DNA from: Entomomonas sp. E2T0
Lineage (GTDB): Bacteria; Pseudomonadota; Gammaproteobacteria; Pseudomonadales; Pseudomonadaceae
DNA: 64,000 nt
Direction: 5' to 3'
Assembly (NCBI RefSeq): GCF_025985425.1
Contig: NZ_CP094972.1
Location: forward strand, 2,963,540-3,027,539
The notes below the pieces were generated by a model, which saw only the letters and a program-made list of their open reading frames with translations, did no database searches and was not told the DNA's origin. A program made the translations under genes and the position numbers. Below, piece by piece: positions 10,638 to 37,130 of this stretch; position 1 is the stretch's first letter, and every line of letters begins with the position of its first letter.

Positions 10638-12884
10638 ATGTTCACTTTTAGCAGGTCCCAGTTTAAGAAACATCTATATGTAGCACTAGTTGTACCAAGT
10701 TTAGTAGTGGCAAAAGAATTACCAAAAGAGAACCATTTAACATTACCTACTTTACAAATCAGTGAAAAACTAGAAGACCAACCTCCCCCTAATGTCTCTT
10801 CTATTCAAAATAAAACCCTTGACCAACGTTTCATTAGAAACTTTGAAGATTTAGCTAAAAGAGCTGAACCAGGGATTAATTTCAATAGAACTAACCAAAG
10901 TATTAATATCCGCGGTTTAGAAAAAGACAGGGTTCTTACCACAGTTGATGGAATACGCCTTCCTTACTTAGATGATCGTATTCGTGGTGAAAAGGGTGGT
11001 GTTGATAGTATTGATTTTAATACTTTATCAAGATTAGATATTATTCGTGGTTCCAATGGCTCACAATCAGGCTCTGGTAGTTTAGGGGGCTCTGTTAATC
11101 TTTATACCCTAAGCCCTGAAGACTTACTTACCAAAGATAAAAATTATGGTGCCCTTTTTAAAACCGACTATGACTCTAGTGATCAAAGTTATGGACTTAA
11201 TATGGCCGTGGCAGGCCGCTTCTCAAATACTTCAGTACTTATTCAAGCAGGTAAGCGTCATGGTCATGAGCTTGATAACAAAGGCCATAGCAACTTATAT
11301 GGAAATCAACGCACTACTCCTGAACCTACAGATACTAAACAAGAGAACTTTCTACTAAAAGTAAAACAGGATTTAGGTTCTGGTCATCAAATTGGCCTTA
11401 CAGGTGAACAATTCACAAAAACTAAAGATATAGATTTACGTACCAGTCAAGGTACAACTTATGCAATAGATAATAATGACAGTAGAGAAATTGTTAAACG
11501 ACAACGAATTTCTGCTGATTATAAATATCGTACAACCTCCAATGATAGCTGGTTAGATGAAGCTGATGCTGTTCTTTATTGGCAACATGCAGAACGAGGT
11601 AATAAGCAACAAGCCTATCGTAACAGCAGACCTATTGGTAACTACATGCGCCATAACCAACTACAAAAAGAAATGTATGGTACTGCAGGTAGTATTAGTA
11701 AGATTTTCAACCAAGGAAATATTGATCAAAAAATAACCATAGGTGGCGAATGGTATCAGTTAAATGCTAAACAAACAGCTAGTGGTTACGATAACTGCCC
11801 TGTATTTACCTCTGTGCCATCACCTTGGGATCCTAATTTTGCTCTTTATATGGCCTGTAGCTCATTACATACCAATCAATCAGATATGCCTAAAACACAT
11901 GGTCAACAATGGGCTGTTTATTTAGCTGATGAAATTAGTTTTGCTAATGAAAAAATAACAGTAACGCCTGCTATTCGTTATGATTATTACAAACATACGC
12001 CACAAAATACTAAAGACTATGTGGCTGGTAATGTACTTAATCAAAACACCAGTAGTTCAAATAAAGATTCAAAAGTATCAGGTAGTCTTACCATTAAGTG
12101 GCAATTAGCTGATCAGCTAACAGCCTATGCTCGCTGGTCACAAGGATTTAAAGCGCCAGACCCTACAGAGTTGTATATGAACTATATCAACACAGGTGTA
12201 GGTTATGCCACATTAGGCAATGCTAAGTTAAAACCAGAAGAAAGTAACAATTTCGAATTAGGTGCAAATTTAGGTAATGAACAACTAGGTGGCTCAGTTA
12301 ATTTATTCTATTCCAAATATAAGAACTTCATTGATAGTATTACTGTTGATAATAGTACAATGCAAAGTTTAGGACTTGATCCAAGCACCTATCGTTATGG
12401 AGTCGATCGTTGGGAAAATCGCAGCAAAGTGCATATTTATGGTGCAGAAGCAACTGCCCACTGGCAATTTGCCAACAATTGGAAAGTTTGGAGTTCAGCA
12501 GCTTGGGCTGTAGGTAAAGATCAACAAACACATCAATATCTAAACTCTATTGCACCACTAACAGGAATCATAGGATTAAACTACCAACGTGATAATTGGG
12601 GTGGTGATATTATGATGACCAGTGCAGCAAGAAGAAACAAAGTCGAAAATGATGCTGACTTCAAAGCACCTGGTTATGGTGTTGTAGATTTAACAGCCTA
12701 CTGGCAACCATCAGCTGTTAAAGGACTGCGTTTACAAGCTGGCGTATTCAACTTAATGGATAAAAAATATTGGAATGCTTTAAATATTCCTGATTCAAGT
12801 GGTATGCCTACATCCCTACAACCTTATGACTACTATAGCGAACCAGGTAGAAACTTTAGGGTAGCAGCCACTTATCAATTCTAA
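10638..12884 (+). CDS. TonB-dependent outer-membrane heme/hemoglobin receptor
   Basis: 748 aa with a signal peptide, a plug and a 22-strand barrel. It ends with the terminal aromatic (…RVAATYQF). Divergent from hmuSTUV. Confidence 0.85.
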   Translation: MFTFSRSQFKKHLYVALVVPSLVVAKELPKENHLTLPTLQISEKLEDQPPPNVSSIQNKTLDQRFIRNFEDLAKRAEPGINFNRTNQSINIRGLEKDRVLTTVDGIRLPYLDDRIRGEKGGVDSIDFNTLSRLDIIRGSNGSQSGSGSLGGSVNLYTLSPEDLLTKDKNYGALFKTDYDSSDQSYGLNMAVAGRFSNTSVLIQAGKRHGHELDNKGHSNLYGNQRTTPEPTDTKQENFLLKVKQDLGSGHQIGLTGEQFTKTKDIDLRTSQGTTYAIDNNDSREIVKRQRISADYKYRTTSNDSWLDEADAVLYWQHAERGNKQQAYRNSRPIGNYMRHNQLQKEMYGTAGSISKIFNQGNIDQKITIGGEWYQLNAKQTASGYDNCPVFTSVPSPWDPNFALYMACSSLHTNQSDMPKTHGQQWAVYLADEISFANEKITVTPAIRYDYYKHTPQNTKDYVAGNVLNQNTSSSNKDSKVSGSLTIKWQLADQLTAYARWSQGFKAPDPTELYMNYINTGVGYATLGNAKLKPEESNNFELGANLGNEQLGGSVNLFYSKYKNFIDSITVDNSTMQSLGLDPSTYRYGVDRWENRSKVHIYGAEATAHWQFANNWKVWSSAAWAVGKDQQTHQYLNSIAPLTGIIGLNYQRDNWGGDIMMTSAARRNKVENDADFKAPGYGVVDLTAYWQPSAVKGLRLQAGVFNLMDKKYWNALNIPDSSGMPTSLQPYDYYSEPGRNFRVAATYQF

Positions 12885-23049: not shown

Positions 23050-24771
23050 ATGAGTACTAAGCAAGTTGCACAAATTGTCATAGAAACTCTACAAGAAGCT
23101 GGCGTAAAGCACTGTTATGGAATTGTAGGAGATACACTTAACTATGTTACTGATGCTATTCATAAAAGCCAGATTGATTGGATTCATGTTCGCCATGAAG
23201 AAGTAGGTGCTTTTGCCGCAGGTGCAGAGGCTTATTTAACAGGACACCTTACAGCTTGTGCTGGCTCATGTGGCCCAGGCAGTTTACATTTTATTAATGG
23301 TTTATTTGAGGCGCATCGTAATGGTGCACCTGTGGTACTAATAGCCAGTCAAATTGTTACTGCTCAACAAAATACTGATTTCCCACAAGAAGTAGACTTT
23401 AAAGCAGTTTATAGTACTTGCTCGGTTTTCTGCGAACAGATTATTAATCCCAAAGAAGCTAGAAAAATAACAACAATGGCTGCACAAACTGCACTAAACA
23501 AAAAAGGGGTTGCTGTTATTATTTTACCTGCTGATATCAGCCAAGCAGAAGTAGTTGATATACCTGCTATTAAAACTTATCATCCTAATCCTATTACTAT
23601 ACCTAATAATGATGAGTTACAGCAAATAGTTAGTCTTATAAAACAAGGTAAAAAAATAGGTATTTACGCCGGCCTTGGTTGTCAATATGCTCATGATGAA
23701 CTCATTGCCTTAGCCGCAAAACTCAAAGCACCTATTGCACATACCTCACGTGCTAAAGATTTTGTAGAGTATAATAACCCCTATAACGTAGGTCTAACAG
23801 GTATGTTTGGTATGGAGTCTGGTTTTCACATGGTAAAAAACTGTGACACCTTACTACTACTAGGTGCAGACTTTGCTTGGTCACAATTCTATCCAGATAA
23901 AGCCAATATTATTCAAATTGATAAAGATGCTTCTCACTTAGGTAGACGTCACCCTATTGCTTTTGGTGCAGTAGGTGATATTAAAGCAACCTTAACTGCA
24001 TTATTGCCATTAATCAGTGAAAGAGAAGATACTAGCTTTTTAGAACAACATCAAAAAATGCACATTAATGCAACCACTAAACTAGATAAAAAAGCACAAA
24101 GTACTAAAAGTGGCCAAATTCATCCTCAATATCTAGTAGAACTACTAGATCAATATGCTACAGATGATGCTCTATTTACAGCCGATGGTGGCTCTCCCAT
24201 GGTATGGCTAATGCGTCACATTAATACTAATGGTAAACGCCGTACCCTTACTAGCTTAAAGCATGGCACAATGGCTAATGCGATGCCACAAGCTTTGGGT
24301 TTACAAAAAGCCTTTCCTAATCGCCAAGTTATCTCTATTTCAGGGGATGGTGGTTTAGCTATGTTACTAGGTGATTTATTAACAGCTATTCAAGAAAACC
24401 TACCTATTAAAATAGTAGTACTTAATAATGGTTCACTGAACTTCGTAGAACTAGAGCAAAAAGTTGAAGGTTTAGTAGATAACTATACTGATTTAAAAAA
24501 TCCAGATTTTGCAAAACTGGCAGAAGTAATAGGGTTTTATGGACGTAAAGTTACAGAGTCACAAGACTTAGAAGTAGCTGTTAAAGAATTCTTAGCACAA
24601 TCAGGCCCTGCCCTCTTGGATGTACATACCAGTCCCTATGAACTAGTTATGCCACCTCAAATAGAAATGGGGCAAGTTATGGGCATGGCTTTATATGGAG
24701 CAAAGGCAACTCTGGCAGGTCGAGGTAAAGAAGTAGTTAGTTTATTAGTAGATAACTTTTTGAAAAAATAA
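23050..24771 (+). CDS. poxB: pyruvate dehydrogenase (quinone) / pyruvate oxidase PoxB (ThDP/FAD enzyme)
   Basis: Collinear with E. coli PoxB along its whole length (VRHEEVGAFAAGAEA…CAGSCGPG…GDGGLAMLLGD…). 573 aa. Confidence 0.85.
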   Translation: MSTKQVAQIVIETLQEAGVKHCYGIVGDTLNYVTDAIHKSQIDWIHVRHEEVGAFAAGAEAYLTGHLTACAGSCGPGSLHFINGLFEAHRNGAPVVLIASQIVTAQQNTDFPQEVDFKAVYSTCSVFCEQIINPKEARKITTMAAQTALNKKGVAVIILPADISQAEVVDIPAIKTYHPNPITIPNNDELQQIVSLIKQGKKIGIYAGLGCQYAHDELIALAAKLKAPIAHTSRAKDFVEYNNPYNVGLTGMFGMESGFHMVKNCDTLLLLGADFAWSQFYPDKANIIQIDKDASHLGRRHPIAFGAVGDIKATLTALLPLISEREDTSFLEQHQKMHINATTKLDKKAQSTKSGQIHPQYLVELLDQYATDDALFTADGGSPMVWLMRHINTNGKRRTLTSLKHGTMANAMPQALGLQKAFPNRQVISISGDGGLAMLLGDLLTAIQENLPIKIVVLNNGSLNFVELEQKVEGLVDNYTDLKNPDFAKLAEVIGFYGRKVTESQDLEVAVKEFLAQSGPALLDVHTSPYELVMPPQIEMGQVMGMALYGAKATLAGRGKEVVSLLVDNFLKK

Positions 24772-24772
24772 A

Positions 24773-25342
24773 CTAGCTTTCATTTCTAAGGGCTAATGCC
24801 CTTAGAGATTGATTATTTACTGTTAGCCAAGCAAACAAAATACCACTCAACATTCCTGTGATATGCCCCTCAAAGGATACCTCTGCACTTGGTAATAAAC
24901 CAAAAACAAAACCACCATATAACATTATTACTATAATGCAGATTAGGAAATTTTTTATAGTCCTATCAAAATAAGCATTACCCAACAGTAATCCCCATAA
25001 ACCAAATATCCAACCACTAGCACCAATATGGGAGGCTGCTCGCCCTACCAACCATAATAATAAGCCACCCACAACAATTATAAAAATACTAGCGACAATA
25101 AAATAGCGTATGGAACGCAACATACAAAGCCATGCTAAAACCACAAAACAAGATAAATTGCCTAGTAAGTGCAATACTCCACTATGAATCCAAGGAGAAG
25201 TAAAAATTCCCCATAATCCATCTAACCTACGAGGAATAACACCATAATTTGCTAAGCCGCCAGCTAAAACCATATTAATAATCTGAACACCTACCATTAA
25301 TAGGGTAATAGCCAGTACTATCCGTACTTGTTTACTCAGCAT
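24773..25342 (-). CDS. rhomboid-family intramembrane serine protease
   Basis: Six TM helices. Rhomboid catalytic GxSG motif (HIGASGWIFG) and a downstream His in a TM helix. The start overlaps the stop of the upstream 1819-aa gene by 11 nt. Confidence 0.75.
   Translation of the reverse strand: MLSKQVRIVLAITLLMVGVQIINMVLAGGLANYGVIPRRLDGLWGIFTSPWIHSGVLHLLGNLSCFVVLAWLCMLRSIRYFIVASIFIIVVGGLLLWLVGRAASHIGASGWIFGLWGLLLGNAYFDRTIKNFLICIIVIMLYGGFVFGLLPSAEVSFEGHITGMLSGILFAWLTVNNQSLRALALRNES
24786..24805. terminator. bidirectional hairpin between convergent poxB and the rhomboid gene
   Basis: CTAAGGGC-taat-GCCCTTAG. The hairpin lies inside the last codons of the minus-strand rhomboid ORF and 15 nt after the poxB stop. 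Confidence 0.45.
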
Positions 25343-28300
25343 CTTCTTGATAAGAACTTTCTGTAGGTTTACCTGCTTTTACTTTCGTATCAATCGATTG
25401 TTTAGGGTGCATACCTACATGCTGTCCTAATAGCTTCAGCTCTGTAATAATATCTTGCATACGCTGATGATTACGTAAATCTAAATCTAGCTTTTTATCC
25501 ATGGTTTTTAACATAGGCATAAAGCTATATTCTAGTGTTTCAGCTAATGTAGTTAATACTGCGTCTAAACCAGGCACAGGTTGATTTACCACTTGAATAT
25601 TAGTTTCTGGCTTATCTTGTAAAGCCTCACTAATATGAGCTAATGGTTTTATCACTTTATCCCATGGGGCTGGCTCTGGCTCTTTATCCATTACGTCGGC
25701 TATATGGGCTATACCAGAAAGCATTTTATCCCAAGGCGCTGGTTCTGGTTTTTGTTTTAAAGCAGCTATCATTTCAGCAAACTGCCCTATTACACTTTCC
25801 CATGGTGCACGCTCAGGCTCAGGTCGTGTTGCAATATTTTTAACTCCCTCAGAAAGATCAACTAACTGAGCTACCACACGGTTACCAATATTGTCGTCAC
25901 CACCCATCGACTTATTACGCAAGAAATCACGTTTAATTTGTTCCCAACGCTCTTGTTGCTGCTCAGTCATATTACCGCGTATTTCAGCCAGTTTAAGTAG
26001 ATTCTCTTCAGCACCTGTCGTTAATAGCTGTGCTTCACCTTGATAATGGTCTTCAAGCAATTGCATCAACTCTTGCTCATTCATTACCGCCGTAATTTTT
26101 TCCGCCAGCTTATTCATATTACGATAACTACCTTGTAACTTGAATGGCGGTTCAACCCGATATTTATCAGCTTGGGCGGCACTAGCAATATATTGTAAAT
26201 TTACTCTGTATACTAAATCACGAGCTCTCATTAAGTGTTGTAAGGTAGCAACAATTTCATTAACTTCAGCTGTACTGTAATCATAACTTAATTCATTACT
26301 TGAGAAAGGCTTACCTTCAGCTTTATCAATAAAACGGTAAAGGTCTGCCATATCACGAGTAGCTAAAGGCGCTAGTATAGGATTAGAAGTTAAACAGTTT
26401 TCAAGATAGCTAAGACGGAATACATCTTCCATGCCGCCTAATACATCACCTAGATTATAGATATCCGCACGGTTAGCTAACATATCAGGAATCTTAAAGA
26501 CTTCACCAGACTCTGTATAAGGGTTACCTGCCATGATGACACAGAACTTTTTACCACGCATATCGTAGGTTTTAGTTTGGCCTTTCCAAACACCTTCAAT
26601 ACGACGAGTACCATCACAAAGCGAAATAAATTTTTGTAAAAACTCAGGGTTAGTATGTTGAATATCATCCACATACAGCATTACATTATTACCCATTTCC
26701 AATGCTAGATTAAGTTTTTCCAACTCTTGTCTAGCAGTAGCATTAGGTGCTTGTGCTGGATCGACTGAAGTAACTTCATGACCAATTGCAGGGCCATTAA
26801 TCTTCATAAAGATTAAACCTAAACGATTAGCCACATACTCCATCAAGGTTGTTTTACCATAACCGGGTGGAGAAATAAGCATTAATAACCCCATAAGGTC
26901 AGTACGTTTGTTCTCCCCCACTGTACCCATTTGTTTGGCTAAGTTATCGCCAATCACACCTAAGTAAATGTCATTGATTAAGCGGTTACGAACAAATGAA
27001 CTCAATGGCTTTGGCTTAAACTCTTCTAAACGCAGGGCATTTCTTTCCCGATTAATAACTTCTTGACGGTATTCTTGATAACGTTTGAAATTAGGTACAA
27101 ACACTTGTTGCTGATAACCAAAGCGCTCATAAAAATCATCAATCCCTAGAATCATTTTGGTATTTTGAATGCGCGAATGTTCTCCCATCAAACCTTCAAC
27201 AGAGAAACGCAAATCCATTTCTGTAAAACGCCAAATTACACTACTATCCAATAAGCTAAGTGCTACTGCTTCTGGAATATAGCTTTGTAAAGCAGTTAAG
27301 TCATCATCGGTTTCAATCACTACATCATTATCATTAGCCTGACAAAGTGCAGTAAACCATCTTTCCGCTAACTCCCAACGAGCTAAAGTACGGCCTTGTA
27401 AGTTAGCTAATGACTGTTGAAAACCAAGCCACATTTGTGCTGCTTCTAAACGTTTCTGCAGTGTTTCCATTAATTGTTTAGCATAACGAGTAAAGGTAAA
27501 CTCAACATTTACACCAGCAGAAAGCACAGCTACTAAATATTCAGCTGCCATCGAACGCTCTTGCTTATCAACAGGTAAGCCATGAACTTCTAAATAGCTA
27601 TCCATTGCTTGTGCAATTTCTATTTGTAAATCTTTTAATGCTTGTTGGCTTCCAAATAACTTAGCCATATTCATTGCAGTATGAGCACGTTCAGGCCATT
27701 TTTCAGCTTCAATATTTTCTTTCCAACGTCCCCAAAATAGCGTTGCAAAACCACGTGCTAATGGTGGGTAACGTAATAAACCAACACTACGATGTAATGG
27801 AATTAATTTACCTAACAATAAACAAGCATCATGATCATGAATGCCTCGCTCATAGCCATCACGATAACGAGGAGCTGCAAAATCACGTACCGTTTTTTCT
27901 AATTGAGCAGGATCTTTTAACTGTTGCTCTAACAGATCAATGCTTAAACCATCTTTATTTTGTTCTGCTGTTTGTAAAATAAGTCCAGCTAAATATTCAC
28001 CACGATATAAATCAGGTGATTCTGAGTCTGTAGTATATTGCCAATAGTCCCGTAGCTCATCTAACTCCGTAGCCCCTAATGATTCAAAATAATCAGTACC
28101 TGTTAAGTGAGTATAAAGTTGCTCACCTCGTGGCATAATGGTTAAATCAAGCTCTTGCGTATTAACACTAAAGCGATGGCGAGGGCCTAATTTAATAACA
28201 TTACCACCCGCTTCAAAGATTTCTGACTTATCTCTTAAACTACGAATAGCCTGATCTTTAGTTGATTTTAAACGGGCATCAAGATCATCTGCCCTTACGC

Positions 28301-30791
28301 TATCTTTTAACTCTCTTAATTTGTCTGATAATTCACGTAACTTTAAAGCTAAAGGGTCACCTGCAAAGAATGCATTTAACTCTTCTTGATTAGTGAAACG
28401 TTCTGTACGACGTTTCATACTCTCTAAAATACGTAGTGCAGCATCTTGTAGAGATTGTGCTTTACGTTGTCTTTCATCCAATAAAGCTTGTTTATGAGTA
28501 TCAAATGTCTCTAATAATTCTTCACGTTTAGCTAGAATATCAGTCAAAAATTCTTCATTATCACTAAACTGACTTTCTAACTCTTCCAACTGTACTAATA
28601 AACGAGATAATTGATCATCACAACGCTCAGGGTCAGTTGCTAAAGACAACGCATTAGTAATTGATTGTGTGAACAGTGTAAATTGAGCACCAAATTGGGC
28701 AACTGACTCATTACTTCGTAATGACTTACGACGTTGTTCAGACCTCGCTCTAGCTTGATTTAAGCGGCCATAAATGGCTGAAATAGCCTCTACAATTAAA
28801 GTACGTTGATTCGCATCATCAATTTTTAATGTACTCATCAATTGCGAAAGTGTGTCAAGATCATCGCCTAGCCCTTTTAAGCCAGTCAACGGTTCTTCTA
28901 ATTGCACAACTGTTGTAGCAGCTTGCGCTTCAGCATCTAAAGCTTCTAACTTTTCTGAGAATGGTTCTAATGCTTCTGGTGTTGATAAAAATACACCTGT
29001 TGCTTCTGAAATATGCAACTGTGATTTTTTTAACTGTTCTTCTAAAAAATCAACACGTGCCACATCCATATAACGGTAGTCACGTATTGTTAGTAAGTAT
29101 CCTAATTGCTTAGTGATAGCATGCAATGCATCTACATACTCCTGAATAGTTTCCCAACTATCTGGACGTAATGAAGTAATTAATGTTTTTTGTTGTTCTT
29201 CTGCTTGTACTAGTGTTTCGGCAGATTGGCGACGAATACTTTCTACTTTTTCATATTCATCTAACACCGCTTCACTAGTTGCAGCAATTTCTCGAACTGA
29301 TTGAACAATATCGCCGCAATGATTATCAGTCAACCAACTATAACTATCTAATAATTTACGAATATTTTCACGAATCAAGTTATAGTGATTAACTGATACA
29401 GATTTACTATCAATGTCTCGACCTAAACTATAAAGATCAGAAATACCTCTTACTAATTCTGGATTGCCAATACGCCCCCAAAATGTATTACGGGTAGGTT
29501 GTCTGGCAGCAAACTCTTCTGAAAGATAAGGTGTTTGCCATATTTGCATTGGATGAACACGAATAGGTTCACTACCTTCACTGGCAAAAATAACCATTTT
29601 GCCATCATCAAAACGCGCATAACCATGCCCCAAAATAGGATTTTGGAGGCGTCTTTCAATCATATTATAGGTAAATAACGCACTACGCCCTTCACTTGGT
29701 TCATAAAAGATATAAAGTACATCTTCACCATTAGGAGATTTTACAGAACGCTTGAATCGCATCCCCTCCATAGACTGATCAAACTTTTTATGCTCACCAT
29801 TTTGCAAATAATATCCACCAGGGAAAATAATGCCATGATCCTCTGGTAATTGAACACAAGACTGACCAATAGCATCTATTCGCTCTACATTTTGTGTAAT
29901 GGTGTTATAAACTAGATAACGCCATATATCTTCTCTATAAGGTAATATTTTTAATAAAACTAAACTACCTAATTGAGCATATTCGATGATCGCGTCATCT
30001 ACTGACTGTGTTTTATCCGTTACAGGTTCGCTATAGATACCTAAACCTGTTGTTGTATTATTCTCTACTTTAATGGTTAGATCACCACCTGTAGTTTCTA
30101 CAAACACAGTATCTAAAATATTAATATGAGGAAACTTACCATTTACCCGCATATCGCGGTTAGCTTTTTGCCACTCAAAATCATAAGGAGCAGGCAGAGC
30201 AATATCACGCTCGCCACGATTATCAATATAACTAATTTGCTTATGATCTGCAGACAGTGCCCAACGGAAAACACGGATATCCGTTATCTTGTCACCCATC
30301 TGGAAGCTAGCTAATAACTTACCATTATTTTGGGTCAGTTGTAATAAACGTGCATCCTTATAGTATGCATAAAGCTCTGTATAATCTCGTACAAAATTAG
30401 GGTCTTTTAAAAAAGTGCCCTCTAGCTCTACGTGCTCTACATCAAAGCCTTCTTCTACCTCAATTAATTTATACAGTGAAAAAACATCTTCAACTCGAGT
30501 TTCTTTTTTAAGGCCTAAAAATACATTGTATCCAAACAGTAACCAATCACCTGCGCGCACAATATCACGAGCAACACTATTATTTTCAGTACGAATACGA
30601 ATTCGCCCAATCACTTCCATGTCACTACGTTTAAACTCATCTAAACGCTTTTGATTAATAATTTCTATTTGCTTGCGTAATTGCTGACCTTGATCTTGTA
30701 AACGCTTATTTAACACTTCATAAGCGCCACCTTCAGCAACTGCTTTATCTAGTAATTCTTGCTCTTGTGCTACTGCTTGGGAATCAACCAT
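25332..30791 (-). CDS. giant (1819 aa) AAA+ ATPase-domain protein of unknown family
   Basis: A single P-loop core sits near residues 1300-1460: Walker A ISPPGYGKTT (nt 26847-26864), Walker B NVMLYVDD about 60 aa later, sensor-1-like CVIMAGNP, and Arg-rich LANRAD. This is the MoxR/dynein-type AAA+ order, not the split SMC/SbcC arrangement. A long coiled-coil-prone charged middle region spans roughly residues 500-870. Three tandem approximately 23-aa repeats ([KRE]PEP(ER)APW[ED]..) lie at residues 1656-1727. Confidence 0.6.
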   Translation of the reverse strand: MVDSQAVAQEQELLDKAVAEGGAYEVLNKRLQDQGQQLRKQIEIINQKRLDEFKRSDMEVIGRIRIRTENNSVARDIVRAGDWLLFGYNVFLGLKKETRVEDVFSLYKLIEVEEGFDVEHVELEGTFLKDPNFVRDYTELYAYYKDARLLQLTQNNGKLLASFQMGDKITDIRVFRWALSADHKQISYIDNRGERDIALPAPYDFEWQKANRDMRVNGKFPHINILDTVFVETTGGDLTIKVENNTTTGLGIYSEPVTDKTQSVDDAIIEYAQLGSLVLLKILPYREDIWRYLVYNTITQNVERIDAIGQSCVQLPEDHGIIFPGGYYLQNGEHKKFDQSMEGMRFKRSVKSPNGEDVLYIFYEPSEGRSALFTYNMIERRLQNPILGHGYARFDDGKMVIFASEGSEPIRVHPMQIWQTPYLSEEFAARQPTRNTFWGRIGNPELVRGISDLYSLGRDIDSKSVSVNHYNLIRENIRKLLDSYSWLTDNHCGDIVQSVREIAATSEAVLDEYEKVESIRRQSAETLVQAEEQQKTLITSLRPDSWETIQEYVDALHAITKQLGYLLTIRDYRYMDVARVDFLEEQLKKSQLHISEATGVFLSTPEALEPFSEKLEALDAEAQAATTVVQLEEPLTGLKGLGDDLDTLSQLMSTLKIDDANQRTLIVEAISAIYGRLNQARARSEQRRKSLRSNESVAQFGAQFTLFTQSITNALSLATDPERCDDQLSRLLVQLEELESQFSDNEEFLTDILAKREELLETFDTHKQALLDERQRKAQSLQDAALRILESMKRRTERFTNQEELNAFFAGDPLALKLRELSDKLRELKDSVRADDLDARLKSTKDQAIRSLRDKSEIFEAGGNVIKLGPRHRFSVNTQELDLTIMPRGEQLYTHLTGTDYFESLGATELDELRDYWQYTTDSESPDLYRGEYLAGLILQTAEQNKDGLSIDLLEQQLKDPAQLEKTVRDFAAPRYRDGYERGIHDHDACLLLGKLIPLHRSVGLLRYPPLARGFATLFWGRWKENIEAEKWPERAHTAMNMAKLFGSQQALKDLQIEIAQAMDSYLEVHGLPVDKQERSMAAEYLVAVLSAGVNVEFTFTRYAKQLMETLQKRLEAAQMWLGFQQSLANLQGRTLARWELAERWFTALCQANDNDVVIETDDDLTALQSYIPEAVALSLLDSSVIWRFTEMDLRFSVEGLMGEHSRIQNTKMILGIDDFYERFGYQQQVFVPNFKRYQEYRQEVINRERNALRLEEFKPKPLSSFVRNRLINDIYLGVIGDNLAKQMGTVGENKRTDLMGLLMLISPPGYGKTTLMEYVANRLGLIFMKINGPAIGHEVTSVDPAQAPNATARQELEKLNLALEMGNNVMLYVDDIQHTNPEFLQKFISLCDGTRRIEGVWKGQTKTYDMRGKKFCVIMAGNPYTESGEVFKIPDMLANRADIYNLGDVLGGMEDVFRLSYLENCLTSNPILAPLATRDMADLYRFIDKAEGKPFSSNELSYDYSTAEVNEIVATLQHLMRARDLVYRVNLQYIASAAQADKYRVEPPFKLQGSYRNMNKLAEKITAVMNEQELMQLLEDHYQGEAQLLTTGAEENLLKLAEIRGNMTEQQQERWEQIKRDFLRNKSMGGDDNIGNRVVAQLVDLSEGVKNIATRPEPERAPWESVIGQFAEMIAALKQKPEPAPWDKMLSGIAHIADVMDKEPEPAPWDKVIKPLAHISEALQDKPETNIQVVNQPVPGLDAVLTTLAETLEYSFMPMLKTMDKKLDLDLRNHQRMQDIITELKLLGQHVGMHPKQSIDTKVKAGKPTESSYQEDAE

Positions 30792-30914: not shown

Positions 30915-33086
30915 TTAATCATCAGTTTTTGGTGTGTCTTTTTTACCACTACTCGCTACTCGCTCAGCAGTTGCTGATAACAACTGTTGAATTGCTCCTT
31001 GAGCAACAGAGCTGCTATTTACAAAGCCATCAAGTGACTTGCCCACAGCCAATGCTTTAGAGAATTTCTCAAAGAATTCGCCTTCACCACCCACAACATC
31101 AATCTTCGTCTTAGCCAGACCAGCCGCCAATACTTCTGCTTGATCTTTAGCAATTTCTTTATTAGCAGCAATTGCAGTGATTGCTTGTTCGAAGGTTTTT
31201 TCCAATTGTAAACGGAACTCTTCATGGGCACGCGCACTATCAGAAAGAGCATTAAGTGAAGTAAATTTCTCAGCAAGACCCGTTGCTTCTGCTCTCATAC
31301 GTTTTAATAGTACTTCCGCTTCAGCATCACCTACATCACGGCTTACTTTGGCCTTCACGATACCTACTTGTTCTTCACCACGTGCTTGAGCAGATAGCTT
31401 TTCTTCCATCACTTTAGCTTCTACCAAGCCTTCTTTTTCCTTGGCAACAGCAGCAGCTTCAGTCACACGAGCTTCAACAAAACCTTGCTCTTCCTTACCT
31501 TTTGCTTCAGATAGCATAAGCTCCATTTGTACTTTAGCTTCAGCAAGACCTTGCTTCTCATTAGCATCTGCTTTAAATTCAATAACACGCGCCTCTGCTA
31601 AACCTTTTTCTTCAACAGCCTTAGCTTCTGCTATACCTCTTTCAGCCGTTAATTTTGCTTCTACTAAGCCTTCTTTTTCACGTACAGAAGCTTGTACTTC
31701 ACGAACTCTTGCATCCGCCAAACCAGGTGCCGCACGCTCTGCTTGAACACCTTCTGCCAAACGTTTTTGTGACTCCGCTTTTTTCGCAGCCGCCTCTAGT
31801 TCAGCCTGTGCCATATTATTAATTTCAACTGCTTTATGTTTAGATGTCTCTGCATCAGCTTCTGCTTGCTTCACTTGGCGAACTAAATCACGTTCTGCTT
31901 CTGCTTGTGCATCAATAATACTTACTTGTTTAGAGCGGTCAGCTTCTGAAACTTGACGTACTTCTTTAATAGCTTCTTCTTCCTTAGCTACCGTACGTTC
32001 AACAGCCACACGATCACGAATAATATTAGCAATCGCTGTACGCTCTGCTTCTAAGGCTTTTTCTTTATCAATACGTTGTAATTCAACTTCACGCTCACGC
32101 TTAACAATGGCTTCTTGTTGAGCTTGAGTTACACCTTCCTCTTGTTCAACTAACACACGCTTTTTATTTAACTCGGTAACTTCCAACTCACGTTGAGTAT
32201 TAATATCTGCTTTACCAATTTCTTGTTCAGCTTGTTTTTGAGCCACTTCTGCTTTAGTACGCTCTTCAGCTTGAACCTTCTGAGTTTCAGCTTCTTCACG
32301 TGCTTTAGTAGTCTCAATTTCACGTTTTTGTCTATTTTCAGCATCAGCTCTTTGACGCTCTAAAGCTAAAGTAGCCTCTTGAGTTTCAACATTTTTCTTA
32401 GTAATCGCTAAATCTTTATCGCGATCCAATTCATTCGTTTTAACAATTTCAGAAGAAGTTCTTTCAACAATCTTACGGATACCTTCTGCATCCATAATAT
32501 TAGTATTCTTTAAATGCTCAATTGGTGTTTGATCTAAGTAGTCAATCGCAGCATCTTCTAGTGAATAACCATTAAGATCTTCACCGATTGCTTGCATAAT
32601 TTCATCACGAAAACGCTTACGATCAGCAAATAACTCTTCAAAATTAAATTTCTTACCTACTGTTTTTAATGCTTCAGAAAATTTAGCATTAAATAAAGTA
32701 GCTACTGCTGTATGATCTGAGGCACGGTCAGCGCCTACTGATTTAGCTACTTTCAACACATCCTCTTGAGTGGCATTTACTTTAAGATAAAAAGCTACTG
32801 TAATATCAGCACGAATATTATCTTTACAGATTAAACCCTCTGTACCACGGCGATCAATATCCAAAGTAATCAAAGAAATTTTCATAAATTCCTTTTTATA
32901 AATCACTGGATAAACTAATGCACCAGTAAAAGTTACTTTAGGTATTGAAGATAAGGTATTAACAATCAATGCTGTACCTTGTGGCACTTTAATATAAAAA
33001 GACTTTACTATAAGTACACTAACTATAATAAGCCCTACAACAGCCGCAGCTATTATGCCAACAACAGCTAAAATTGACGAAAACAT
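30915..33086 (-). CDS. flotillin/SPFH (band-7) family protein, YqiK-like, with a long repetitive Glu/Ala/Lys tail
   Basis: N-terminal TM helix, then an SPFH domain (…TLDIDRRGTEGLICKDNIRADITVAFYLKV…). Roughly 350 aa of heptad-like EA-rich repeats follow (EKEGLVEAKLTAERGIAEAKAVEEKGLAEARV…). 723 aa. Confidence 0.8.
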   Translation of the reverse strand: MFSSILAVVGIIAAAVVGLIIVSVLIVKSFYIKVPQGTALIVNTLSSIPKVTFTGALVYPVIYKKEFMKISLITLDIDRRGTEGLICKDNIRADITVAFYLKVNATQEDVLKVAKSVGADRASDHTAVATLFNAKFSEALKTVGKKFNFEELFADRKRFRDEIMQAIGEDLNGYSLEDAAIDYLDQTPIEHLKNTNIMDAEGIRKIVERTSSEIVKTNELDRDKDLAITKKNVETQEATLALERQRADAENRQKREIETTKAREEAETQKVQAEERTKAEVAQKQAEQEIGKADINTQRELEVTELNKKRVLVEQEEGVTQAQQEAIVKREREVELQRIDKEKALEAERTAIANIIRDRVAVERTVAKEEEAIKEVRQVSEADRSKQVSIIDAQAEAERDLVRQVKQAEADAETSKHKAVEINNMAQAELEAAAKKAESQKRLAEGVQAERAAPGLADARVREVQASVREKEGLVEAKLTAERGIAEAKAVEEKGLAEARVIEFKADANEKQGLAEAKVQMELMLSEAKGKEEQGFVEARVTEAAAVAKEKEGLVEAKVMEEKLSAQARGEEQVGIVKAKVSRDVGDAEAEVLLKRMRAEATGLAEKFTSLNALSDSARAHEEFRLQLEKTFEQAITAIAANKEIAKDQAEVLAAGLAKTKIDVVGGEGEFFEKFSKALAVGKSLDGFVNSSSVAQGAIQQLLSATAERVASSGKKDTPKTDD

Positions 33087-34135: not shown

Positions 34136-34828
34136 CTATAAGCCATTAAACTCATCTTCACTAACCACTCTATAAGCACCATCTTCTAGATATTCAATCA
34201 ATACAACTCTATCATTTCTTTGTAAAGTTAATGATTCATCTGCTCTAATTCTTAAATGAAGTCCAGCTCCTTTATCATCATAAATAGCCTCCCCAAATGT
34301 TTCTGTTACCTTACCCGATCTAACAATGGCAACTTGTCCAATGAGTGATGCTGCTGAAGTTGCGTTTTGCTCTTCATTTAATTTTTTAAAGATTCTACGT
34401 AAAGGCTTACATGTCCATCCGGTTAAATAGGCAGCAGGAAAGATAGAGGCTAAAAAAATAACGATACCAACTGGAATTTGTAATATCCCAAGCGGTATAC
34501 TAAAAAGCAGTAACTGAGCAAAATAACAAAGCGCCCAACCAATAAAAAAGAATACAGTCAAAATAATGGTTAAAGGGACTGAGTCCAAACCTAACTTCAT
34601 TAAAAAGCCAGCGAACCATCCACCTTGAATATCACCCGTATGAGTAACATCTAAATGACCATCTGAGCCATCTACCCCACCAATATCTGTATCTACACCA
34701 CCAAAATCTAAGACATCAATATCTAATAGACCTAAGGCAGCAACTCCCCAGAAAATAACAGCTACAAATATCAGAAAAGTATAAATAATTGTAGGAAAAG
34801 AAGAGATAGTACTAAAAAAAAGTTCCAT
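34136..34828 (-). CDS. YqiJ/NfeD-like inner-membrane protein (DUF1449-type; flotillin operon partner)
   Basis: Multi-TM N-terminal half plus a C-terminal soluble beta-rich domain (…GQVAIVRSGKVTETFGEAIY…RVVLIEYLEDGAYRV). This is the layout of YqiJ, the partner of YqiK in E. coli. Confidence 0.6.
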   Translation of the reverse strand: MELFFSTISSFPTIIYTFLIFVAVIFWGVAALGLLDIDVLDFGGVDTDIGGVDGSDGHLDVTHTGDIQGGWFAGFLMKLGLDSVPLTIILTVFFFIGWALCYFAQLLLFSIPLGILQIPVGIVIFLASIFPAAYLTGWTCKPLRRIFKKLNEEQNATSAASLIGQVAIVRSGKVTETFGEAIYDDKGAGLHLRIRADESLTLQRNDRVVLIEYLEDGAYRVVSEDEFNGL

Positions 34829-34927: not shown

Positions 34928-35632
34928 TTAAGATGAAGTTTTAGCTTGCTGCTTTTTCTTCAATCTTTCTAACACATCATTGGCACTACCTTCTTTAGCT
35001 AAGAAACCTGCCTCACGAAGTTTGCTATCTAATGCATCATCTGTTTCCATACTTTCTATTTCACTAGCAGCTTCCATTCTAGCACTACGCTCAGCTTGTT
35101 TCTTTTTAATACGCTCTAAAGACTCCAATGCAGTATGCATTTTATTTTGTGAGCCTGAATAACGACTAGCTACAGTGGCTTGTGCTTTTTGTACGCTTTC
35201 TGTCGCTTTAACGGTATCTACTTGCTGTTTCAAACGTTTAATATTAGCCTCTGATTGAGTAATTGCTTTACGTAAATCAGCTGCACTCTTAGAATATGCA
35301 CTTTCAGCTTCACGTTCAGACTCAAAAGCAGCTTCTAAATTAGCAATTTTCTCTGCTACTTCATGAGCTAGTTTTTCATCTTCCGCTTCTAACGCTTTAA
35401 ATGCATAACCTTCATACTCATCAATCTTAGCTTGTGTTTTCTTAACACGTTCTGCTGCTAATTTTTGTTTAGCCATAATTTCAGCTAAAGCTTCTTTAGA
35501 TTTGCGTAACTCAGCATCTGCATCACGGATTTCTTGGTCTAAAATACGTAATGCCTGTGTGTCAATAATTGCTTCACCTGCTTCGTGAGCACCGCCGCGT
35601 AACGCAGTAATTAATTTGCTCCACACACCCAT
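34928..35632 (-). CDS. PspA/IM30 (phage-shock protein A/Vipp1) family protein, YjfJ-like
   Basis: 234-aa all-helical coiled-coil protein beginning MGVWSKLITALRGGAHEAGEAIIDTQALRILDQEIRDADAELRKSKEALAEIMAKQKLAAERV…, with the PspA-family heptad register. It is preceded by a DUF2170 gene, as in E. coli yjfI-yjfJ. Confidence 0.75.
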   Translation of the reverse strand: MGVWSKLITALRGGAHEAGEAIIDTQALRILDQEIRDADAELRKSKEALAEIMAKQKLAAERVKKTQAKIDEYEGYAFKALEAEDEKLAHEVAEKIANLEAAFESEREAESAYSKSAADLRKAITQSEANIKRLKQQVDTVKATESVQKAQATVASRYSGSQNKMHTALESLERIKKKQAERSARMEAASEIESMETDDALDSKLREAGFLAKEGSANDVLERLKKKQQAKTSS

Positions 35633-35649: not shown

Positions 35650-36264
35650 TTAAACTTTTAAGTAATTTTCAAAAGCTTCCGTTGCTTTAATTACGTTATC
35701 TGACAATATTTCAATTTCAAACATTATATTTGAAAGACTTGATTCAGAACTTAGTGCTCCAAACATAATATAAAAATCATTTTCAGCAAGTTTTTCGATA
35801 CCTATAGTCGATAAGGGGAAAAACTTATGTGTTCTTAATACTTCTTCATTAAATGTATTAACATCTTTTACTGCATCTGTTGGCCACAAAATACTTTCTA
35901 CAATGATTTGTTCACCAACAACACTAATAAATACGGGTAAATCACCGAACTCGTGCATGATAATGTGTAAACTTGGGTCTGTCCCCTGTACCAATTCAAC
36001 ACTAGCACCGCCATTTTTAAATAGTTCAACGGCAGATAAAGCATCGAATAATTTATTACTAGTCCACATTGAAACAGCTGCTGTCATATTACTCTCCTGT
36101 GATAATGATTGAGTCATTCCTGCTGGTTGACGTAACTGTTTTTCAACGTTCAGTAACATGCGAGCATGCTCTGGCAGTATCCAAACTTCTTTTTTTATCA
36201 ACCCCTGCTCTCGCAAACGTTGACGGTATAGTCGTTGATAATGTGCTGATGTTTTTGTATCCAT
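35650..36264 (-). CDS. DUF2170 (YjfI-like) protein, first gene of the PspA-like operon
   Basis: 204 aa, soluble. Its position upstream of a PspA-family gene mirrors the E. coli yjfIJ arrangement. The family call rests on this synteny plus general similarity. Confidence 0.5.
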   Translation of the reverse strand: MDTKTSAHYQRLYRQRLREQGLIKKEVWILPEHARMLLNVEKQLRQPAGMTQSLSQESNMTAAVSMWTSNKLFDALSAVELFKNGGASVELVQGTDPSLHIIMHEFGDLPVFISVVGEQIIVESILWPTDAVKDVNTFNEEVLRTHKFFPLSTIGIEKLAENDFYIMFGALSSESSLSNIMFEIEILSDNVIKATEAFENYLKV

Positions 36265-36282
36265 GGCGTTACTATATCACTC

Positions 36283-36312
36283 ACATGTAATATTTTCAAT
36301 ATCATTACATGT
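36283..36312. promoter_or_regulatory. imperfect palindrome in the divergent promoter region of the PspA-like operon and the PPTase gene
   Basis: ACATGTAATAttttcaaTATCATTACATGT (arms ACATGTAAT / ATTACATGT). It lies 19 bp upstream of the YjfI-like start. Confidence 0.35.
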
Positions 36313-36362
36313 AAAAATTTATAAAATAATTTAAAAGATAAAATACTAATACAATTAATAAA

Positions 36363-37130
36363 TTGGATAATAAAAACCAAGATGGGCTAGTAAAGTTTTT
36401 ATTAACACTGCAAAATAATACAATGAATCCAGATAATATTCCTACCTTTTATTCATCTTTTTCTAAACAATGGGTTTTTCCTTTTGTAATGGAAAATGTT
36501 TGTTTATATCACTGCCGATTTAATCAACAACACTTTTCAGATATAGCTTATAAACAGCATGATATTAAACAGCCATCAGCTTTATATCATGCCGCCCAAA
36601 AACGTAATGCTGAATATTTAATTGGTCGGCTGTGTGCAAGAGAAGCCTTAAAAAATTTAAACATTAATGGCTATCCTTTATCAAGTGAAGATAAAAGCCC
36701 ACAGTGGCCCCTTCTAAGCTGTGGCAGTATCACTCACAGTCACCATGTAGCTGCTGCAATCGTAGCTCTAAAAACACATTGGCAATGTTTAGGATTAGAT
36801 ATTGAATTTTTGATTTCTGAGCAACGCAGTAAAAAACTATTAACTACTATTGTTAACCAAAATGAACAAAAACTAATAGGCAAAGATATTAGTCTATTTA
36901 CTACGCTTGCATTTTCAATTAAAGAAAGCCTATTTAAGGCATTGTATCCCATTACACTCAAGCGTTTTTATTTTGAGCATGCCGAAATCATTGATTGGAA
37001 TACTAGCGGGCAAGTTACCCTTAAATTACTGATTGATCTATCTGATAAGTGGCAAAAGGGAACATTAATTACAGGCCAATACTGTATAAAAGACAACTAT
37101 ATTTGGAGCTTAATAGGAATAGACAGCTAG
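36363..37130 (+). CDS. 4'-phosphopantetheinyl transferase, EntD/Sfp-type
   Basis: PPTase motifs: GLDIEF (metal-binding GxD), FSIKESLFKALYP ((F/W)SxKE(S/A)xxK) and an upstream SCGSITHSHH. The true start may be an internal Met. Confidence 0.7.
   Translation: MDNKNQDGLVKFLLTLQNNTMNPDNIPTFYSSFSKQWVFPFVMENVCLYHCRFNQQHFSDIAYKQHDIKQPSALYHAAQKRNAEYLIGRLCAREALKNLNINGYPLSSEDKSPQWPLLSCGSITHSHHVAAAIVALKTHWQCLGLDIEFLISEQRSKKLLTTIVNQNEQKLIGKDISLFTTLAFSIKESLFKALYPITLKRFYFEHAEIIDWNTSGQVTLKLLIDLSDKWQKGTLITGQYCIKDNYIWSLIGIDS

Follow-up and report, generated by a model that had tools for sequence, protein, structure and literature searches.

A minimal rhomboid protease as a conserved but dispensable distal member of a bac-type PspA-flotillin-AAA+ operon in Entomomonas and other Gammaproteobacteria

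The bac operon was first described in Pseudomonas aeruginosa as PA3732-PA3729 and was later extended, by reverse-transcription PCR and proteomics, to six co-transcribed and co-regulated genes, bacA-F, for which a sigma-54 promoter was proposed and on which BacA acts negatively (PMC10948618). An operon class with the same layout was described by Ravi et al. 2024, who reported the pair of CesT/Tir (DUF2170) and PspA genes together with a band-7/flotillin protein, a novel AAA+ ATPase that includes coiled-coil as well as beta-propeller regions and a YqiJ/YuaF-like protein, joined in some versions from Proteobacteria by a PLD (HKD) hydrolase (PMC11237479). The subject of this work is a gene for a rhomboid intramembrane serine protease which ends such an operon in Entomomonas sp. 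E2T0 (NZ_CP094972.1, positions 2,963,540 to 3,027,539); the whole stretch of 64,000 nucleotides that was analysed is called the window below. The comparison of genomes and metagenomic contigs shows that this rhomboid gene is tightly linked to the distal end of the operon and has been conserved and inherited together with it in several gammaproteobacterial families, although the operon can do without it.

The locus in the window is the Entomomonas version of the P. aeruginosa bac operon. The order of the genes for BacA, BacB, BacC, BacD and the giant protein is common to the window and to the bac operon (PA3732-PA3727 or PA14_16140-16200; PMC2587700, PMC10948618), and the core components of the class of Ravi et al. 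2024 (PMC11237479) all have a counterpart in the window, that of the YqiJ/YuaF-like protein being a putative one. Differences from the bac operon are an additional SPFH paralogue, the lack of a sigma-54 promoter match and the gene which follows the giant ATPase: in the operon of P. paraeruginosa (L016), which is without the rhomboid, a PLD-like (HKD) gene stands directly after the ATPase gene, whereas the window has the rhomboid and no PLD. By synteny with P. paraeruginosa, the BacE of P. aeruginosa would be the giant ATPase and BacF the PLD-like protein, both of which are left unannotated in the paper; the idea of BacF as a rhomboid is rejected on account of this position of the PLD gene. Compared to the class of Ravi et al. 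2024, the rhomboid is found in about 40% of the operons analysed here, often together with Peptidase_M90/SEC-C and Zn-ribbon proteins.

A rhomboid is mentioned neither in Ravi et al. 2024 (text and one supplement; PMC11237479) nor in the BacA paper (PMC10948618), and no report was found in the literature on a rhomboid with phage shock protein/PspA or within an SPFH operon. The novelty of a rhomboid in a PspA operon, as put forward in the initial annotation of this DNA, is borne out in this sense: the rhomboid family and the operon class are each known, and their conserved combination is new relative to the searchable literature. The same annotation had referred to a flotillin-GluP association in Bacillus, for which no report was found in the literature searched; the documented partner of YqgP/GluP is FtsH (PMC7231995), and YqgP-FtsH and the mitochondrial SLP2-PARL-YME1L complex are the nearer precedents.

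Relatives of the giant ATPase are encoded in 563 stretches of the genome collection. Three giant ATPases were aligned, and a scan with this alignment over a single genome of each species gave 80 loci. These were annotated with profiles of the window proteins and of 120 rhomboid homologues, and the count was made on the 72 species-level loci in which 1.5 kb or more of sequence follows the ATPase gene. The rhomboid gene follows directly after the ATPase gene in 29 of the 72 loci and lies elsewhere in the operon in two. The hosts of the 29 loci include Entomomonas, many Pseudomonas, Ectopseudomonas, Stutzerimonas, Aquipseudomonas, Phytopseudomonas, Limnobaculum, Pragia, Xenorhabdus, Cellvibrio, Exilibacterium, Agarilytica, Hahella, Oleiphilaceae and Saccharospirillaceae, and separate protein look-ups detected the same adjacency in Providencia and Teredinibacter. 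Other placements are found in Aliikangiella (L079), where the rhomboid gene lies between those of PspA and YqiJ, in L078, where it is divergent from the DUF2170 gene (both Pfam-confirmed), and in L139, where it comes after an M90 peptidase gene. The nearest relatives of both the rhomboid and the giant ATPase are those of Entomomonas (Pseudomonadaceae), with 86-97% identity. Since a 93%-identical homologue, the nearest one, exists and the pairing recurs in dozens of genomes, the adjacency exceeds chance by far.

The distal end of the operon is variable. In other genomes (L010-L058, L089-L161) it is made up of a cassette of rhomboid, Peptidase_M90 with SEC-C, a Zn-ribbon protein (approximately 177 amino acids) and PLD-like HKD genes, whose combinations vary between genomes and of which the window keeps the rhomboid only; homologues of the PLD, M90 peptidase and Zn-ribbon proteins are absent from the window. 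The order ATPase-rhomboid-PLD is present in 21/72 loci, so that the two genes do not exclude each other, as they would if they competed for a single position. A protein of 204-258 amino acids without Pfam match is encoded right after the ATPase, often with a 4-nt overlap, in several metagenome-assembled genomes of Xanthomonadales or related bacteria (L036, L040, L043, L049, L051, L056, L064 and L067).

Viewed from the side of the rhomboid, a scan of metagenome contigs with the rhomboid alignment gave 80 relatives with 40-49% identity. The loci were considered informative, 54 in all, if they carried the ATPase or had enough upstream sequence to exclude it, and in 32 of these the giant ATPase gene is immediately upstream of the rhomboid gene. 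Downstream of the metagenomic rhomboids there are often genes for a Peptidase_M90/SEC-C protein, a Zn-ribbon protein and PLD. One contig (L116) carries, downstream of the PLD gene, a second, larger rhomboid-like open reading frame of about 353 amino acids (11601..12662, plus strand). In matched loci the pairwise distances of rhomboids and ATPases are correlated with a Mantel r of 0.91, which was reached by 0 of 999 permutations, and in a neighbour-joining tree the rhomboids group by host lineage. Because of this correlation and of the grouping by host, the distribution fits co-inheritance with several losses and not repeated capture.

Members of the same rhomboid family occur in other genomic contexts. 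In a lineage related to P. putida (L001, L169, L170) the rhomboid gene is placed directly after DUF2170-PspA and before DUF2491, in an operon of the yjfIJKLMC type which contains DUF2170, PspA, rhomboid, DUF2491, DUF350, DUF1190 and GSP synthetase genes, with or without a K+ channel, and neither a flotillin nor a giant ATPase. In a clade of high GC content (L101, L108, L110, L113, L115, L123) it shares the strand of groEL, from which it is separated by 60-70 nt on the downstream side, and the gene of a pseudouridine synthase of the RluE/RsuA type comes 1-13 nt after it. Some further relatives are solitary or adjoin an M90 peptidase gene. The partnership of the rhomboid tracks the PspA module (DUF2170-PspA) more broadly than the ATPase alone, and the recurring theme of its neighbours is envelope or protein stress, with PspA twice and GroEL once.

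These data bear on the question whether the rhomboid gene might be a mere passenger, which joined the operon at its 3' end in a single neutral event and has since been passed on with it without functional tie. Related rhomboids do occur in unrelated contexts, and the gene is facultative and was cleanly lost in several lineages, as in P. paraeruginosa, where the PLD-like gene begins 1 nt after the ATPase stop. A passenger would, however, hardly be expected to keep its adjacency across Pseudomonadaceae, Morganellaceae, Budviciaceae, Cellvibrionaceae, Hahella and Oleiphilaceae, to be still present after having been re-positioned at least three times within the operon (L078, L079, L139), to be placed independently beside DUF2170-PspA in another type of operon and to conserve the stop/start overlaps with the preceding gene. 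We consider the passenger explanation quite improbable.

As to these overlaps, the initial annotation had placed the rhomboid start 11 nt inside the 3' end of the 1819-aa open reading frame, and the 11 shared nucleotides are confirmed: counting the TAA stop of the ATPase gene, the rhomboid ATG lies 11 nt inside its end, that is 8 nt before the TAA. The same junction is present in a metagenome-assembled genome of Entomomonas (L009). Outside the window, 59 of 63 ATPase-rhomboid junctions are at most 31 nt apart and 21 of 63 are NTGA 4-nt overlaps, distances which are approximate, start codons being first-in-frame calls. In-frame fusions of ATPase and rhomboid, which the initial annotation had suggested looking for along with overlaps, were absent from the loci examined; overlapping or closely adjoining genes are by contrast the prevalent form of the junction, both in the species-level and in the metagenomic loci. 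The test proposed in the initial annotation speaks in favour of its central idea, the rhomboid as a genuine partner of the operon of PspA, flotillin and giant ATPase, and an inactive catalytic dyad, which it had named as evidence to the contrary, is found in no orthologue.

There being no intergenic space, and the operon of P. aeruginosa being read through to its last gene, the rhomboid is probably co-transcribed with the bac-type operon, whose end would be marked by a hairpin and by the converging poxB-like gene. In the sequence ahead of the rhomboid ATG (..CTTATCAAGAAG ATG) a canonical Shine-Dalgarno is not seen, which is compatible with coupling. Ribosomes ending on the ATPase gene may restart 8 nt upstream, and the rhomboid would thus be translated by termination-reinitiation; it would then be produced only alongside the ATPase, and at lower amount. 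The initial annotation had gone as far as to exclude any intervening terminator or promoter. This leaves aside promoters inside the coding sequence of the ATPase, where an internal promoter is possible from the sequence, although none stands out in a scan.

The rhomboid has a match to PF01694 (Rhomboid) over residues 43-175 of 189, with an E value of 2.2e-21 and 77 bits against a cutoff of 22.6. The catalytic Ser109 lies within HIGASGWIFG and the catalytic His160 within FEGHITGMLSG, with the pattern H160-x2-G-x3-G, and the oxyanion motif is HLLGN (His58-x3-Asn62). An AlphaFold2 model computed from an alignment of 40 homologues (pLDDT 94.6, pTM 0.91) has six transmembrane helices and no additional domain; the first helix begins at residue 4, only loops are outside the membrane, and residues 178-185 form a short amphipathic C-terminal helix in place of a seventh transmembrane helix. 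The N-terminal cytoplasmic domain of the GlpG/YqgP type of rhomboids is absent from the 189-aa protein. As searches of the PDB by sequence (phmmer and a profile of 40 sequences) gave no match, the fold was compared instead: the top 33 Foldseek matches are all GlpG, with TM-scores of 0.60-0.73 and probability 1.00, the best ones being E. coli and H. influenzae GlpG (TM-score 0.68-0.71, approximately 20% identity). The way in which positive charges are distributed over the loops suggests that both termini are cytoplasmic (N-in/C-in) and that the active site, like that of GlpG, faces the periplasm. Membership in the rhombosortases (TIGR03902), the best match in NCBIfam and a weak one, is ruled out by a score of 32 bits against a cutoff of 84.

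Conservation was assessed in a set of 117 family members, composed of the window rhomboid and the rhomboids of the examined loci, 115 of which are complete at the C-terminus. Ser109 (G107-x-S-G), His58 and Asn62 are invariant in all 117, and His160 and the GxxxG of the sixth transmembrane helix are kept in all 115 members complete in that region. Beyond the canonical motifs, His53, Arg101, His105, Ser156 and Glu158 are also invariant in the 117 members, several of them flanking the catalytic Ser and His. The statement in the initial annotation that the serine of GASGW and the downstream transmembrane histidine are intact is thus supported by Pfam, by the GlpG fold and by invariance in the family. 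Since catalytic and oxyanion residues are invariant, the family appearance argues for a working-type protease under purifying selection, and a pseudoprotease is disfavoured.

The same invariance weighs on the suggestion of a non-proteolytic role, in which the fold would thin or distort the bilayer, or would anchor PspA or the ATPase, in the manner of derlins and iRhoms. PspA systems need a membrane partner, PspB and PspC are absent from the window operon according to Pfam, and the rhomboid adjoins PspA or DUF2170 in three arrangements, all of which would suit an anchor. Unchanged catalytic and oxyanion residues in 117 family members are unexpected for a pseudoprotease, though, and a protein of 189 amino acids with loops only offers no docking domain outside the membrane; of all the explanations considered this is the least probable one.

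The features of the locus are listed in Table 1.

Table 1. Coordinates of the rhomboid gene, of the other genes of the bac-type operon and of associated sequence features in the window.
Feature	Position	Strand	Description and basis
poxB-like gene	23050..24771	+	converges on the rhomboid gene; stop codons 1 nt apart
Rhomboid intramembrane serine protease, minimal, six transmembrane helices	24773..25342	-	189 aa, ATG start; open reading frame listing and Pfam
12-bp hairpin	24782..24809	.	terminator-like scan; within the last rhomboid codons, beside the converging poxB-like gene
Codon of catalytic His160	24863-24865	-	translation of 24773..25342
Codon of catalytic Ser109	25016-25018	-	translation of 24773..25342
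Overlap of rhomboid and ATPase open reading frames, 11 nt	25332..25342	-	reads 5'-ATGCTGAGTAA-3' on the minus strand
Giant 1819-aa protein, BacE equivalent by synteny	25332..30791	-	DUF3686 N-terminal, DUF7902, coiled coil, one AAA+ module
Flotillin/YqiK-type SPFH protein, 723 aa, BacD equivalent	30915..33086	-	homologues and fold
Relic, 29 aa	33208..33294	-	52% identical to flotillin residues 158-186
Short SPFH paralogue, 252 aa	33365..34123	-	transmembrane helix and Band_7; Pfam E 2.4e-5, 24.9 bits against 23.6
YqiJ/YuaF-like multi-pass membrane protein, 230 aa, BacC equivalent	34136..34828	-	position and architecture
PspA/IM30 family protein, 234 aa, BacB equivalent	34928..35632	-	PF04012, E 7.5e-48
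DUF2170 / CesT-Tir-like protein, 204 aa, BacA equivalent	35650..36264	-	first operon gene; Pfam and NCBIfam
Candidate sigma-70-type promoter	36271..36299	-	TTGAAA-17-TATAGT with TG (extended -10); ahead of the BacA-like gene

The giant ATPase, which has matches to DUF3686 (E 2.8e-198), AAA/AAA_5 (E about 1e-6) and DUF7902, is 59-62% identical to its orthologues in Providencia and Teredinibacter. Its Walker A motif is GYGKTT, invariant in the alignment, and its Walker B motif is LYVDD, with Asp-Asp and not Asp-Glu, and does not vary between three distant orthologues either. A unit of about 24 amino acids of the PEPxAPW(D/E)K type occurs in three tandem copies close to the C-terminus. DUF3686 is not mentioned in the searchable literature, and its Pfam label, "ATPase involved in DNA repair", is at odds with the membrane-stress context.

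In the 723-aa protein an N-terminal transmembrane helix is followed by an SPFH domain and by a long coiled coil rich in Glu and Ala. Neither this protein nor the 230-aa protein has a direct Pfam match, even at E values up to 5. The first 240 amino acids of the former have hundreds of homologues which carry PF01145 and are named flotillin family or YqiK, and its AlphaFold2 model (pLDDT 75) has flotillin, prohibitin, erlin, stomatin and HflK/C as top PDB matches (E 9e-9). It is placed in the SPFH/flotillin family because homologues, a 31%-identical Band_7 paralogue and fold matches agree, and the SPFH partner of the rhomboid is therefore a flotillin, as the initial annotation had it. The paralogue in question is the short SPFH protein, which aligns with flotillin residues 28-196 and is lineage-specific, since it is missing in most orthologous operons, which pass directly from YqiJ to flotillin. 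The relic lies in the 278-nt gap before the flotillin gene, and paralogue and relic look like a decaying tandem duplication.

The 230-aa protein has no match in NCBIfam either; phmmer detects an orthologue at the equivalent position in most of the 80 loci, and the putative likeness to YqiJ/YuaF is one of architecture, following the description in PMC11237479. The BacA-like protein matches DUF2170 (E 5e-52) and the NCBIfam family "biofilm formation regulator BacA" with 320 bits against a cutoff of 300. A reading of the locus as a defence system is rejected, PADLOC giving no meaningful matches.

The candidate sigma-70-type promoter ahead of the BacA-like gene is the best site of the promoter scan, with 10/12 positions, and is a consensus match only. 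No sigma-54 site (-24/-12, TGGCAC-N5-TTGC with at most 2 mismatches) was matched ahead of the BacA-like gene, upstream of 36264 (36265..36420, minus strand). At the other end of the operon, the hairpin sits in the codons of the non-conserved C-terminal tail of the rhomboid, and it may be a bidirectional terminator shared with the poxB-like gene and embedded in coding sequence.

With regard to function we tentatively favour, with a probability of roughly 0.45, a stress-coupled protease which clips transmembrane helices for the membrane-repair module. The rhomboid would supply this module for membrane stress and repair with intramembrane proteolysis: at the stressed membrane, where PspA and the flotillin scaffold gather, it would clip unstable or orphaned transmembrane helices. 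Removal of the clipped fragments, for which the giant AAA+ protein or other proteases are plausible agents, would follow, in a quality control of the licensing type. Such a role is suggested by the precedents of GlpG/Rhom7 (PMC7232013), of YqgP-FtsH (PMC7231995) and of SLP2-PARL-YME1L (PMC10818064). In the case of YqgP (GluP)-FtsH of Bacillus subtilis and of GlpG/Rhom7 of Shigella it is the first cut by the rhomboid which licenses degradation, with an AAA+ partner in Bacillus (PMC7231995, PMC7232013). The genes of YqgP, GlpG and Rhom7, unlike that of the window rhomboid, lie apart from those of their partners; the protein described here is the bare six-helix core, to which cytoplasmic domains are added in YqgP and GlpG and a seventh transmembrane helix in Rhom7. 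The rhombosortases and AarA, which acts on TatA, are likewise short bacterial rhomboids, with dedicated substrates; AarA has seven transmembrane helices, and neither of them is linked to PspA, flotillin or AAA+ genes.

In the mitochondrial SPY complex, SLP2-PARL-YME1L, a scaffold of the SPFH type serves membrane proteostasis jointly with a rhomboid and with a protein of the AAA+ type, and the same kinds of component are found here (PMC10818064). SPY is a demonstrated physical complex, whereas the triad described in this work is one of gene linkage and co-inheritance; a protease domain is absent from the giant AAA+ protein, whose architecture is unrelated to YME1L/FtsH, and the PspA of the operon has no counterpart in SPY. 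In the pairs HflK/C-FtsH and stomatin-NfeD/STOPP an SPFH scaffold is paired with a membrane protease, and the window operon has a putative partner of the NfeD type in its YqiJ/YuaF-like protein; its protease is, by contrast, an intramembrane serine protease on a polypeptide of its own and belongs neither to the ClpP-like NfeD domains nor to the Zn/AAA proteases. PARL differs from the minimal six-helix rhomboid of the window also by an additional N-terminal helix (1+6).

A more specific proposal takes the parallel to SLP2-PARL-YME1L literally. The rhomboid would be an ancestral, dedicated subunit of a repair machine of PspA (ESCRT-III-like), flotillin and giant AAA+ protein, a prokaryotic counterpart of the mitochondrial complex, cutting transmembrane anchors inside a flotillin-delimited patch for extraction by the AAA+ protein, within a mix-and-match distal cassette of hydrolases (rhomboid, PLD, M90). 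We hold this to be possible, though on balance rather unlikely.

The main rival to the quality-control role, and an unlikely one in our judgement, is that the rhomboid cleaves the module's own anchors, i.e. the N-terminal transmembrane helix of the flotillin (and of its short SPFH paralogue) or else one of the helices of the YqiJ-like protein, in order to release, mature or turn over the scaffold. The flotillin, with its short N-terminus, one transmembrane helix and cytoplasmic body, has the N-out/C-in orientation of TatA, the substrate of AarA; Pro and Gly are present near the outer end of the helix in most orthologues; and more than 60 loci have the genes of all three, flotillin, YqiJ-like protein and rhomboid. 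Such a cleavage would equal that of stomatin by the serine-protease domain of long NfeD/STOPP, a domain which the YqiJ-like protein does not have, and the stomatin/NfeD-protease pair has its precedent in PH1510/PH1511 of Pyrococcus. The initial annotation had named the flotillin helix as a substrate candidate. No feature of it co-varies with the presence of the rhomboid: Pro and Gly occur to the same extent where the operon has no rhomboid, the flotillin helix of the window itself is without Pro, and the P4/P1/P2' rhomboid motif is so loose that matching it says little. No substrate signal was seen in the flotillin N-terminal helices when operons with and without rhomboid were compared. Moreover, the rhomboid family is also found in PspA operons without flotillin and YqiJ, and beside groEL. 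Because the flotillin helices are alike in both groups of operons, and because the family also occurs at DUF2170-PspA without flotillin and at groEL, a general role in stress and quality control is preferred to a single operon-encoded substrate.

Regulated intramembrane proteolysis would be another possibility, in which the rhomboid cleaves a membrane-tethered factor and so turns on or off either the response of PspA or a programme downstream of it, for instance biofilm formation. Rhomboids do signal elsewhere, as with AarA and TatA in the quorum sensing of Providencia. The bac operon is moreover tightly regulated, with BacA acting negatively (PMC10948618). The operon encodes, however, no membrane-tethered transcription factor, anti-sigma factor or similar protein according to Pfam and NCBIfam, the rhomboid gene is at its distal, least-expressed end, and many lineages without the rhomboid keep the regulator BacA. 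A regulatory function of this kind seems improbable to us, and together with the non-catalytic and passenger explanations it is counted among the less likely ones.

Several points weigh against the favoured role of a stress-coupled, quality-control protease. The operon is without the rhomboid in 41 of the 72 species-level loci, including those of P. paraeruginosa, Halopseudomonas, Xanthomonadales, Orbaceae, Burkholderiales and Longimicrobium, and the gene is thus dispensable for the operon in many lineages; when the sampling starts from the rhomboid, about 40% of the relatives show no linkage to the operon. Co-variation of distances is expected for any two vertically inherited genes. Finally, the giant AAA+ protein is only presumed to be an unfoldase or extractor of membrane proteins, and its Walker B motif has Asp-Asp.

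The roles of bacterial rhomboids are, to our knowledge, largely unknown, with TatA, MgtE, HybA, FdoH and FdnH as the few established substrates. A rhomboid clade that is found repeatedly inside a PspA-flotillin-AAA+ operon, and elsewhere beside PspA or groEL, points to a stress pathway and to a short list of partners. The evidence is comparative and of interest to both the rhomboid and the PspA/flotillin fields, and it adds to the bac/PspA-flotillin class of operons a component which published accounts of the class do not contain. As for the model organism, P. aeruginosa, in which the bac operon influences biofilm formation and virulence, it appears to have lost the rhomboid. If the triad of SPFH protein, rhomboid and AAA+ protein were a physical unit, it would parallel the SPY complex, and this layout of membrane proteostasis would be either ancient or convergent. 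If the rhomboid were indeed an ancestral subunit of the repair machine, the operon would provide the first operon-defined physiological context, and a hunting ground for substrates, for a widespread clade of bacterial rhomboids.

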